Shown here in pieces: positions 4,954 to 6,317 of a stretch of DNA of 64,000 nucleotides. Source of the DNA: Nitrospirota bacterium (GTDB taxonomy: Bacteria; Nitrospirota; UBA9217); NCBI GenBank assembly GCA_963818475.1, contig CAWFSF010000006.1, positions 1,024,001 to 1,088,000 of the forward strand, given 5' to 3'. The number at the start of each line of letters is the position of its first letter. Position 1 is the first letter of the stretch. A program made the position numbers and the translations under genes. The notes under the pieces were generated by a model. That model made no database searches, had not been told where the DNA came from, and was given only the letters and a program-made list of their open reading frames with translations.

Positions 4954-5049
4954 TGAGAAGTGGTCAGTTCAGCGGCAGTTACCACAATCCAGCAGACCTG
5001 AAAGAGGGCAACGCCTGCCGATTACAACAAAATAAGCATTTTTTTTACG

Positions 5050-5077
5050 ATTTGACATAATATACAGAGTTAGGGAT
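5050..5077 (-). other. hybrid dif-like att site with degenerate XerC arm
   Basis: Minus strand ATCCCTAACTC-TGTATA-TTATGTCAAAT: XerD arm and core identical to the site at 6290-6317, XerC arm non-canonical. Confidence 0.75.
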
Positions 5078-5101
5078 TCCGGAAAAGTAGGGGATCTTTT
5101 A

Positions 5102-5155
5102 CCGTGGGAGACCGGCAGGGGGTCCCGCTTGCGGGTTCCTGCCGGTCTTCCACGG
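5102..5155. repeat. long GC-rich hairpin in the dif-integrated element
   Basis: CCGTGGGAGACCGGCAGG (5102-5119) pairs with CCTGCCGGTCTTCCACGG (5138-5155, one G-T pair); inner CCCGC-TT-GCGGG. Confidence 0.85.
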
Positions 5156-5196
5156 ATGGGTATTTCATGTTTTTGGTTTTTGGTTTATGGTTTTGT

Positions 5197-5248
5197 CTCT
5201 AGGTACACTTGTTCCGGGTAGTAACACCGGAACAAACTGCACCTAGAG
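5197..5248. repeat. second bulged hairpin in the dif-integrated element
   Basis: CTCTAGGT/ACCTAGAG and TTGTTCCGG/CCGGAACAA around loop GTAGTAACA; preceded by 7-bp GTTTTTG tandem units at 5169-5196. Confidence 0.8.
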
Positions 5249-5305
5249 TGCAGTGCCATCAATAAAATCAATGACTTATGCGCTAGTTTTGGGAATTGAA
5301 TTATT

Positions 5306-5611
5306 TCAATTACTTGGCTTTACTTTTTTTTGGTTTCGTTTTTGGTTTTCGACGGCTTTTAGCATCATTTCGTAGTACGGTTTTATGTGATCTGCTGCTG
5401 TCGTGTAGTTGGCGATCACGAGGGCTTTTTCGGGCTCTTCGTTGATCAGCTCAGCGAGTCTGATTGCTACTGCATCATTGCAGGTTGTTTCCTGATGGTA
5501 AACCCTTAGAAGGTAGTTGCCCTGGGCTCCGATCAGCTGCGCTAATTTGGTTGTTGTTTTGATGCCTAGCTTTTTCTTTGCGTCATCGATGTATCGAGTC
5601 ATTGTTATCAT
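5306..5611 (-). CDS. HTH repressor, filamentous-phage DUF3693-like (101 aa)
   Basis: GGAG RBS before ATG 5611; YIDDAKKKLG..KLAQLIG..D..AIRLAELINEEPEKAL pattern recalls Vibrio inovirus DUF3693 repressors (recognised from memory, not searched). Confidence 0.6.
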   Translation of the reverse strand: MITMTRYIDDAKKKLGIKTTTKLAQLIGAQGNYLLRVYHQETTCNDAVAIRLAELINEEPEKALVIANYTTAADHIKPYYEMMLKAVENQKRNQKKVKPSN

Positions 5612-5721
5612 ACTTTCTCCTTTTTTGTCAAATTTATTTATCAAAAAATTGGTGGCCTTTTTTTGATTTTATAGTTTACACTCTTAATCGTTGCTTACAG
5701 CTGCCGGGTTTTGCTGCTTCT

Positions 5722-5759
5722 GCCAGCCGGATTTATCGCTTCCCCGGCTGGCCTTTTTG
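5722..5759 (+). terminator. intrinsic terminator-like hairpin inside the element
   Basis: GCCAGCCGG...CCGGCTGGC followed by CTTTTTG. Confidence 0.5.
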
Positions 5760-5852
5760 TCTCTGCTTCTTTGTAGCTTTGCCGAAGTATGACTTGTCAT
5801 ACTTGTATTACGTTCGAGGAACGGTAGCGGGACTTACGCTTGCTTTTTCCTT

Positions 5853-6245
5853 TCACCCTAACTGCGCCGTGGTAGTAGCCGCTTGGTAAAATTTCCGACC
5901 GCTCGAAACATAAATTTTTGCGTCACTATAGCCAATTCCAAAATCTTGCTTGATGCACTGCAGGGCCTTTGCCTTGTCGCCGGCGCATCCGTTGCCCAGG
6001 TGTTCCTGGAAGCGGGAGAATACCTCGAGCGATTTTCGCTTGAAGTTTTCCTGTCTTCGCTTTACGTCTACCTGGTCTCTTGCTGCTTCAACGGCTTTTG
6101 CAAAGACGATCTTTGTACGTATGCCTCTGGAGAGGTCAAGAAGGGTGTTTAAAGCGAAGATAAGGTCTTTGATTATCTCTGGGTCGGCTTGAAGTGTGAT
6201 TTTGCCGTTGTCGCTGCCTAGCGTGAAGATATCGGGGTATGACAT
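5853..6245 (-). CDS. hypothetical helical protein (130 aa) carried by the element
   Basis: GGAGG RBS before ATG 6245; intact ORF with no recognisable family. Confidence 0.65.
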   Translation of the reverse strand: MSYPDIFTLGSDNGKITLQADPEIIKDLIFALNTLLDLSRGIRTKIVFAKAVEAARDQVDVKRRQENFKRKSLEVFSRFQEHLGNGCAGDKAKALQCIKQDFGIGYSDAKIYVSSGRKFYQAATTTAQLG

Positions 6246-6289
6246 TTTGGGCCTCCAAAGGTTCCGGCCCTGTAACACCTGTCATTACG

Positions 6290-6317
6290 ATTTGACATAA
6301 TATACATTATCAGACAA
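6290..6317 (-). other. dif: chromosomal dif site (XerCD dimer resolution)
   Basis: Minus strand TTGTCTGATAA-TGTATA-TTATGTCAAAT versus E. coli GGTGCGCATAA-TGTATA-TTATGTTAAAT; AT-rich intergenic context. Confidence 0.9.

Follow-up and report, generated by a model that had tools for sequence, protein, structure and literature searches.

What is the 1,240-bp segment that lies between two dif-like sites in the genome of a Nitrospirota bacterium, and how might so small a piece of DNA have come to be there? The window analyzed here is a 64,000-nt stretch of that genome (G000:C6:1024001-1088000), taken from a 2.35-Mb contig (C6) of a metagenome-type assembly (G000) that is 91% complete with 6% contamination. 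An exact 22-nt direct repeat (TTACGATTTGACATAATATACA) occurs in the window at 5045-5066 and 6285-6306, with 1,240 bp from start to start and 1,218 bp between the copies; these are the sole two matches at three or fewer mismatches, and none of 100 dinucleotide shuffles contained any match. Between the copies are two small open reading frames (ORFs), ORF1 and ORF2. We consider the segment to be, more likely than not though with real room for doubt, a non-autonomous, miniature integrative mobile element of the type that exploits Xer (IMEX), one that consists of a lysogeny-type module alone and is integrated at a Nitrospirota dif. Comparisons with relatives drew on a lineage set of 64 species genomes, which represent one class with a single family, and on a phylum sample of 401 genomes.

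Junctions of the segment and its chromosomal site

The features that define the two junctions are as follows, in window positions.

5045-5066, left repeat copy; its minus-strand sequence is the core TGTATA followed by the XerD-type arm TTATGTCAAAT and by CGTAA
6285-6306, right repeat copy, part of the full dif
6290-6317, minus strand, complete chromosomal dif of 28 bp (XerC-type arm 6307-6317, core 6301-6306, XerD-type arm 6290-6300)
5050-5077, minus strand, hybrid (distal) junction site (XerD-type arm 5050-5060, core 5061-5066, element-derived segment 5067-5077)
6262-6284, right-end segment; according to the pair list of the folded junction, it and 5064-5084 are the halves of an imperfect inverted repeat

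Read on the minus strand, the full dif is composed of an XerC-type arm (TTGTCTGATAA), the core TGTATA and an XerD-type arm (TTATGTCAAAT), the arms being named from what we take to be the E. coli dif consensus. Core and XerD arm recur unchanged in the left copy (5050-5066), but at 5067-5077 the XerC arm is replaced by an unrelated sequence that, by direct reading, agrees with the host arm at 4 of 10 positions. A first-pass annotation, made from the letters of the DNA, had described a 22-bp direct repeat with copies 1,240 bp apart, a full dif in the right copy and a left copy without a canonical XerC arm; the sequence bears out all three points, and the string predicted there for the circle junction matches as well. 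The dif and the dif-like site are directly repeated and one junction restores a full dif, an arrangement shared by a second element described below (L037). The imperfect inverted repeat has halves, at 5064-5084 and 6262-6282, that would flank the XerD arm of the attachment site (attP) in a circular form of the segment; inspection of the L037 junctions by eye revealed no counterpart to it. A CTX-like folded attP was also considered and was rejected, the best internal complement to attP being 15/33.

The cumulative GC skew of C6 reaches its maximum in the 20-kb bin at 1,020,000, with positive skew before this bin and negative skew after it, and the site is located at 1,029,050-1,030,317. The coincidence of the skew switch with the site gives it the position expected of the replication terminus and thus of the chromosomal dif. 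A 17-mer made up of the core and the XerD arm (at most one mismatch) is present in 51 of the 64 lineage genomes, mostly as a single copy, compared with two matches for a reversed control pattern, and the 28-bp dif is 90-100% identical in relatives. The XerD of G000 scores 373 bits, above the curated NCBIfam cut-off. In two congeners, G003 and G005, an amidohydrolase gene, a single dif and a gene for a 286-aa protein follow one another with no insert, and the outer flanks of both G000 junctions align with the two sides of these empty sites, the left flank corresponding to the XerD side. An empty dif between the same flanking genes identifies the segment as an insertion. Comparison of the dif loci of relatives thus upholds the proposal of an insertion at the chromosomal dif, and the outcomes that the first-pass annotation had named as speaking against it were not found: relatives do not all carry the segment, and its ORFs are not conserved chromosomal genes. 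ORF2 is carried by 3 of the 64 class genomes and by 4 of the 401 genomes of the phylum sample, a rarity incompatible with a conserved chromosomal gene.

That the segment is not mobile, the repeat having arisen in assembly or through local duplication of dif around ordinary genes of the chromosome, is hardly credible in view of these comparisons. The type of the assembly and its contamination would allow for such an error. However, the locus is situated inside a 2.35-Mb contig, the independent contig L037 has the same architecture, the sites of relatives are empty and the ORFs are absent from 61 of the 64 lineage genomes.

The two genes and the loci that share them

Between the junctions, the segment contains the following features.

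5306-5611, minus strand, ORF1 (101 aa, AAGGAG upstream), a Cro/CI-type helix-turn-helix (HTH) regulator of a phage regulator family
5853-6245, minus strand, ORF2 (130 aa, GGAGG upstream), whose start codon and the XerD arm in the full dif are 44 nt apart
5067-5305, non-coding region of 239 nt, with hairpins at 5102-5155 and about 5196-5255
5612-5852, ORF2-ORF1 intergenic region, with short hairpins at 5722-5752 and 5785-5804

Both minus-strand frames are open and preceded by Shine-Dalgarno-like motifs, in keeping with the earlier description of two intact ORFs with ribosome-binding sites and no Rep, integrase or coat genes; these are the only two ORFs, and neither matches a recombinase or Rep family. 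ORF1 matches phrog_638 (7.6e-8) and phrog_4441 (1.4e-5), families annotated as transcriptional regulator and HTH DNA-binding protein, and the same two PHROG families are matched by its homologues, P0005 (64%) and L037:1666-1956 (40%). A database of 5.8 billion proteins yielded two matches to ORF1, including the protein of the window itself. The AlphaFold2 model of ORF1 (predicted local distance difference test score, pLDDT, 89.4) comprises six helices, and the top rows of a Foldseek comparison with it include the P22 c2 and 434 Cro repressors as well as DdrO and HigA, with template modeling scores (target) of 0.67-0.76 and a root-mean-square deviation of about 1.9 Å over 62-63 residues; no row reaches E ≤ 0.001. 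Profile comparison remotely relates ORF1 to the regulator of an inovirus, L026 (hhalign 84%, E 7.2e-6, 26% identity over 86 columns), and a tblastn search of the phage collection with ORF1 returned no match. We propose that ORF1 serves as a regulator of ORF2 or as an immunity repressor.

ORF2 is without a Pfam, NCBIfam or PADLOC family and matches only phrog_35536 (7.7e-4) among the PHROG families. Searches of Pfam with both ORFs gave nothing at E ≤ 0.1 save a chance-level match to Spore_III_AB, and none of 38 ORF2-family members has a Pfam match. Three matches to ORF2 were found in the 5.8-billion-protein database, and a profile search of 1.84 billion representative proteins recovered 54 clusters at E ≤ 1e-3, 31 of them at E ≤ 1e-10; judged by these searches, ORF2 is the founder of a new small protein family. 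Its members share the motif HLNNGCxGDK...A..I...F.L...DA.IY..GRR, of which HLNNGCxGDK, located at the end of the long helix, is the most conserved part. In the AlphaFold2 model (pLDDT 95.9), a beta-hairpin is followed by a helix of 64 residues and, at the C-terminus, by two more helices. Foldseek comparison with PDB and BFVD gave nothing at E ≤ 0.001, only weak homeodomain-, KorA- or HTH-like rows; the ESM Atlas gave a best score of 0.83 and no family, and a sequence-profile search of PDB gave nothing below E 0.7. An ORF2 alignment (A2) compared with the small ORFs beside the dif-like sites of the inoviruses L026 and L025 reached an hhalign probability of 0.1%.

In those parts of PMC6744903 that were covered, XafT is described as a protein that combines an XRE HTH domain with DUF3653 and activates XerD, and DUF3653 genes as clustering beside dif in gamma- and betaproteobacteria. 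No protein of the 64 lineage genomes scores over the cut-off for DUF3653 (PF12375). Prediction of a complex between the host XerD (L027:1495-2376:-) and ORF2 (alignment A3) gave 0.00 in both runs, which were made without controls, and counts as evidence neither way. In our proposal, ORF2 would act as a DNA-binding or Xer accessory factor, offset the absent XerC arm and thereby be a functional analogue of XafT.

The model of ORF1 resembles HigA antitoxins about as well as it resembles phage repressors, and the two genes are small, co-oriented and adjacent. The segment could accordingly be addiction cargo, in which ORF2 is a toxin of unassigned type and ORF1 a HigA-like HTH antitoxin, akin to the 768-bp 'add' dif module of Acinetobacter plasmids; Xer-bounded toxin-antitoxin modules are known, as the sections consulted of PMC6449649 describe. 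We nevertheless give this explanation little credence. The intergenic gap is 241 nt in G000 and 61 nt in L037, so that ORF2 and ORF1 are not translationally coupled, and the genome G058 retains an open ORF2-like frame with no ORF1 homologue nearby. Moreover, ORF2 does not match toxin families of PADLOC, Pfam or NCBIfam, and the fold predicted for it, helical and elongated, has one end that resembles a helix-turn-helix.

A second complete element is found on L037, a metagenome contig of 2,260 bp, where the spacing from dif to the hybrid site is 1,123 bp. A 287-aa gene (homologue of the 286-aa gene beside the G000 element) is followed by a full dif, ORF2 (52% identity), ORF1 (40%), a non-coding stretch of about 180 nt and, last, a hybrid site without an XerC arm. 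The two XerD arms of L037 differ at position 6 (C versus T), reading TTATGTCAAAT on the element side and TTATGTTAAAT on the chromosome side. This difference would put the crossover in the core or among the first 5 nt of the XerD arm, the part in which Xer strand exchange is to be expected; alternatively, the difference may have arisen later by point mutation. A homologue of ORF2 (P0002) and one of ORF1 (P0005) each have a longest contig of 10,171 bp and come from the same sources, and they are taken to sit on one contig as a third ORF2-ORF1 pair. Two further proteins, P0001 and P0003, are on contigs of 1,031 and 1,556 bp, respectively.

Other members of the ORF2 family also lie beside dif. The complete genome G076, from another genus, has an ORF2 there that is interrupted by a TAA stop, and in L040 a truncated ORF2 is situated directly beside dif. 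The open ORF2-like frame of G058 (L020 = G058:C19:69000-86000, 973-6282) encodes 144 aa with 35-38% identity and likewise adjoins dif; it is followed by genes for a DUF3800 protein, a protein with Mrr_cat and M78-peptidase domains and a 493-aa protein. No second dif-like site was found within 16 kb in G058, and the locus may be a larger island or a set of stacked and decayed IMEXs. In L038, a distant ORF2 (31%) lies 92 nt from a palindromic site (676-706) built of an XerD arm, 8 bp and a second, inverted XerD arm. Overall, a dif-like core and XerD arm occur within about 600 nt upstream and in the same orientation at 6 of the 9 assessable ORF2-family loci; there are 10 in all, the count omitting L039, whose contig begins inside the ORF2-family gene. 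By direct reading, 44-92 nt separate the ORF2 start codon from the XerD arm in G000, L037, G076 and L038.

The broken ORF2 of G076 and the truncated one of L040 demonstrate that decay beside dif is real in this family, and they bear on whether the segment is the dead remnant of a larger IMEX prophage, inoviral or other, that underwent an internal deletion, its regulatory end perhaps being kept as a superinfection-immunity cassette. Such a history would also fit the membership of ORF1 in the same PHROG families as the regulator that overlaps the dif-like site of L026, as well as the lack of a replication gene, the single copy and the presence of a complete element in just 1 of the 64 lineage genomes. 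It has more difficulty with the likeness of G000 to L037: at 40-52% protein identity, the two share gene order, both att sites and size (1,240 versus 1,123 bp), a minimal layout on which independent deletions are not expected to converge. The third ORF2-ORF1 pair, on what is taken to be a single 10,171-bp contig, also speaks against it, as does the failure to find any larger relative with ORF2 plus Rep or coat genes in IMG/VR, the phage and plasmid collections or the 401 phylum genomes. A remnant is thus a rather unlikely origin for the segment, if one that deserves to be kept in mind. Searches of the phage and plasmid collections with the element (blastn), of IMG/VR with alignment A1 and of metagenomes in a first scan with A1 yielded no match or relative, and IMG/VR searched with the ORF2 alignment A3 gave one weak match, on a 133-kb contig with no XerD arm nearby.

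Several further observations concern dif-like sites and their surroundings. The N-terminal extension of P0023 reads through a site similar to the symmetric one of L038. The ORF2-family gene of L052 (G207:C77:1-2010) has an extra C-terminal HTH-like tail and uncharacterized neighbors, and a 10-nt match to the lineage XerC arm (TGTCCGATAA) overlaps its start codon. The contig ends L044 and L045 (G049:C131 and C161) have the core, XerD arm and XerD-side flank in common; the XerC arm is canonical in one, whereas the left side of the other differs (…CTGGACATAA), an assembly branch that would agree either with a further IMEX or with a polymorphism of occupied and empty alleles at dif. In AT-rich intergenic DNA of G076 (L019, G076:C1:3159951-3160029), far from dif and outside any array of clustered regularly interspaced short palindromic repeats (CRISPR), a distance of 62 nt separates two dif-like sites whose XerD arms are intact. 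In another Nitrospirota family, L021 (G039:C54, about 17946-18090) contains the dif-like sequence AATTGTCTGATAA TAGATA TTATGTCAAC twice, 117 nt apart, with similar upstream flanks and a run of N between the copies. Duplicate dif 17-mers in G074 and G075 were examined as candidate IMEXs and ruled out, being strain-variant contigs with the same XerC side. The 286-aa protein (window 6561-7421) has a signal-peptide-like N-terminus and no Pfam or NCBIfam match, and it is a conserved neighbor of dif in G000, G005, G058, L037 and L040. Farther along the window, 14000-28000 has a low G+C content (0.40-0.47) and a GC skew of -0.10 to -0.15, compared with about -0.03 in general after the terminus, and could be a foreign island.

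Non-coding DNA, inoviruses and a CRISPR spacer

The non-coding region at 5067-5305 is predicted to fold as single-stranded DNA (ssDNA) at -52.7 kcal/mol (z = -8.07), a value that none of 200 shuffles bettered. The arms of its first hairpin (5102-5119/5138-5155) are 18 nt long and 94% complementary, and the stretch 5645-5852, in the ORF2-ORF1 intergenic region, has a z of -3.5. Rfam assigned no family to 5067-5305 at the gathering score, with only sub-threshold chance matches to the hairpin, and a scan of the minus strand of this region for the sigma-70 consensus found no promoter-like site. Two features reported from the letters alone are substantiated by these measurements: the hairpins by complementarity and fold scores, and the T-rich plus strand by an AT skew of -0.17 to -0.21 over 4001-7000, which is expected from minus-strand coding.

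An exact match to a 19-mer comprising the core, the XerD arm and CG was found in two IMG/VR contigs, the uncultured inoviruses L025 (7.8 kb) and L026 (5.6 kb). Both encode Rep and an ATPase of the Zot family, together with a pIII-like and a small coat-like protein, and L026 is circular, as judged from its 94-nt terminal repeat. In both, the sequence at the position of the XerC arm is unrelated to the host arm, a one-armed design like that of the element. The dif-like site of L026 falls within the 3' end of a regulator gene, the product of which matches the same two PHROG families as ORF1. By our own estimate, for which the size of the collection is not given, a random 19-mer might turn up about once in IMG/VR; we read the sites as dif mimics because both contigs are inoviruses and the site is inside or just upstream of a regulator gene in each.

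These similarities, thin as they are, raise a special case of the mini-IMEX reading, namely an inovirus satellite that a helper filamentous phage would replicate by rolling circle and package as ssDNA, with the hairpin-rich region as origin or packaging signal. The pronounced ssDNA fold of the non-coding region, the remote relationship of ORF1 to an inovirus regulator and the core, XerD arm and CG that L025 and L026 share identically, without an XerC arm, would all suit such a satellite. We still regard it as distinctly improbable. The Zot family (PF05707) was detected in none of the 64 lineage genomes, although divergent pI proteins could escape detection, and neither Zot nor Rep_trans (PF02486) was found in the G000 genome, which is 91% complete. 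The strength of the ssDNA structure is not matched in L037, and attP lacks a CTX-like second inverted half (best 15/33). In addition, L025 and L026 have no assigned host, no significant tblastn match to ORF1 or ORF2 (an 18-bit row for ORF2 in L026, E 5.3) and no spacer match in G000 beyond the dif one described below. The first-pass annotation had offered a choice between a helper-dependent satellite and a deleted prophage kept for immunity. The insertion at dif on which that choice was premised stands; the failure to find Zot in 64 genomes speaks against the first option, and a second minimal element at 40-52% protein identity speaks against the second.

The G000 genome contains a CRISPR array (C6:1998384-2002860) of 74 repeats and 73 spacers, adjoined by genes for Cas6e and Cse1, and its repeat resembles what we take to be the E. 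coli type I-E repeat. One spacer (C6:1999812-1999843; L003 1499-1530), about the 50th from the leader end, holds the third genomic copy of the 17-mer and matches CG, XerD arm and core at 19 of 19 nt. Its remaining 13 nt differ from both G000 junctions, and we read it as the likely record of a different IMEX with the same attP design. None of the other 72 spacers matches the interior of the element, and none matches L025 or L026. The position of the cas genes places the leader at the high-coordinate end of the array and, with it, the 13 element-specific nt at the end of the CRISPR RNA that is proximal to the protospacer-adjacent motif (the seed). Under the type I-E rules as we take them to be, this placement would spare the host's own dif. 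A literature search joining CRISPR spacer, dif site and XerD found nothing related.

A proposed mechanism and its setting among Xer-dependent elements

The anatomy of the sites suggests how a mini-IMEX of this kind might integrate. A 1,240-bp circle would recombine with dif via a one-armed attP that comprises the XerD arm, CG and the core TGTATA and lacks an XerC arm. Integration would rebuild a complete dif on the XerC side, by which chromosome-dimer resolution would keep working, and would leave a hybrid site without an XerC arm on the other side. The latter would be a poor substrate for XerCD, so that the insert may be shielded from FtsK-driven deletion, by analogy with the gonococcal genetic island and TLCphi. 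Since the element has no recombinase, replication or morphogenesis gene, it would rely on host XerC and XerD plus a transfer vehicle, and it could pass between cells by transformation or with the aid of a helper phage or some other element. The non-coding region, which in the circle would adjoin the 3' end of ORF1 on one side and attP on the other, would there be located upstream of ORF2 across attP, and integration may separate ORF2 from an element promoter.

Several observations weigh against this model. Site anatomy is the sole basis for invoking XerC and XerD in integration and excision. The identity of the two copies runs 5 nt past the XerD arm (CGTAA), which mimicry of arm plus core would not by itself need, and the candidate XerC gene of G000 is broken across two frames (C5:26865-27437 and 27442-27729; 191 and 147 bits against TIGR02224), owing to either an assembly indel or a real frameshift. 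The non-coding region of L037 equivalent to the structured one of G000 is not strongly structured (z = -1.57, with 12 of 200 shuffles folding as well). Three ORF2-family loci, L024 and L036 (both weak matches) and G207/L052, have no recognizable XerD arm nearby, and no homology was detected between ORF2 and XafT/DUF3653. Current mobility of the element is something we infer; the element is single-copy, no second copy having been found in the G000 genome, is complete in 1 of the 64 lineage genomes, and may be inactive now. Two public read runs (about 6% of sampled words) gave left-flank contigs only, of 189 and 151 nt and with no joints, and are uninformative on a circle or an empty site.

More tentatively, the ORF2 family might constitute a new class of Xer accessory factor, unrelated to FtsK-gamma or XafT/DUF3653, that lets an attP without an XerC arm recombine with dif. 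The elements of 1.1-1.25 kb would then be minimal self-sufficient Xer cassettes, each made up of a regulator, a factor and a 17-19-bp site, that spread as non-replicating circles and are recognized by host CRISPR at attP. We consider this wider proposal possible rather than likely.

The comparisons that follow rest on portions of the papers cited. In the IMEX phages of Vibrio, which have one-armed 17-bp attPs, the repressor, a second regulator (XafT) and the attP module make up the terminal prophage genes (PMC12715192). The element resembles them in that a repressor and a second small regulator flank a dif-like attP and become the terminal genes on integration, in the possibility of a one-armed attP, in the restoration of a canonical dif at one junction and in the lack of an integrase of its own. 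In Vibrio, however, this module occupies an end of a phage of 8-13 kb that also has genes for replication and structure, whereas here it stands alone in 1.24 kb; ORF2 has no detectable relationship to XafT/DUF3653, and the host belongs to Nitrospirota rather than Gammaproteobacteria. Like the satellite phage TLCphi of Vibrio cholerae, the element is non-autonomous, sits at dif and has an attP with one degenerate arm; the integration of TLCphi depends on a region of about 1 kb flanking attP that encodes a small accessory protein, a feature that the element's layout recalls (PMC6744903, PMC9226527). The degenerate arm of TLCphi is that of XerD, the XerC arm and core of TLCphi-type IMEXs being canonical, whereas the element has an exact XerD arm and core but no XerC arm, and no DUF3653 (XafT-like) protein is encoded beside attP as in TLCphi-type IMEXs.

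Smaller units are known from the dif modules of Acinetobacter plasmids, which are 768-3011 bp long, Xer-bounded and without mobility genes (PMC6449649). The element shares with these modules its small size, its one or few genes, its boundaries of XerC/XerD sites and its presumed mobilization by host Xer (PMC6449649, PMC7399989). The modules differ in being plasmid-borne, with inversely oriented, two-armed pdif sites and genes for resistance, transport or toxin-antitoxin systems as cargo; the element is situated in the chromosome, at the terminus dif, and its sites are directly repeated with one arm missing. The earlier statement that IMEXs are several kb or larger accordingly needs qualifying in view of these plasmid modules. 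The gonococcal genetic island and Legionella LME-1 offer a parallel of another sort, as both are stably integrated with a wild-type dif on one side and, on the other, a modified dif-like site believed to evade FtsK-dependent excision; they differ from the element in spanning tens of kb with many genes, in the degenerate XerD arm of the gonococcal island and in the single-recombinase system of Legionella (PMC9765430, PMC6744903).

Unlike CTXphi-type IMEXs, the element has neither two inverted dif-like attP halves nor a rolling-circle Rep of its own. TLCphi is several kb long and encodes its own replication protein, and the smallest phage-type IMEXs known are about 2.7-4.7 kb. The RS1 satellite of CTXphi and the miniphages of f1/M13 derive from filamentous phages, depend on a helper and retain no more than regulatory or origin regions; RS1, at about 2.7 kb, still encodes a replication initiator, and the miniphages do not integrate. 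No helper or origin was found for the element, which is, to our knowledge, the smallest chromosomal one of its kind.

IMEXs as a kind are already known. What appears to be new here is the Nitrospirota host, the size of 1.12-1.24 kb, the ORF2 family and a lysogeny module that stands alone. In agreement with the first-pass annotation, which knew of no IMEX in such a lineage, a literature search found no work joining Nitrospirota-type names and IMEX.

What is understood of IMEXs is owed chiefly to work on Vibrio, Xanthomonas, Neisseria and a small number of further Proteobacteria, and Nitrospirota have few cultured representatives. The element would extend IMEXs to this phylum, and its two genes and one-armed site may mark the lower size limit of a chromosomal Xer hitch-hiker. 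Its intact XerD arm without an XerC arm is the mirror image of the TLCphi design and may show how Xer catalysis can be redirected. ORF2, whose fold is predicted with confidence, which has a conserved motif and which keeps a fixed place by the XerD arm in four loci, is a concrete candidate for an Xer accessory protein. For the annotation of metagenome-assembled genomes, a full dif adjoined by ORF2, with a hybrid site at a distance of about 1.1-1.2 kb, would provide a signature by which dif and small IMEXs can be recognized, in assemblies whose contigs the repeats of such elements may themselves break.

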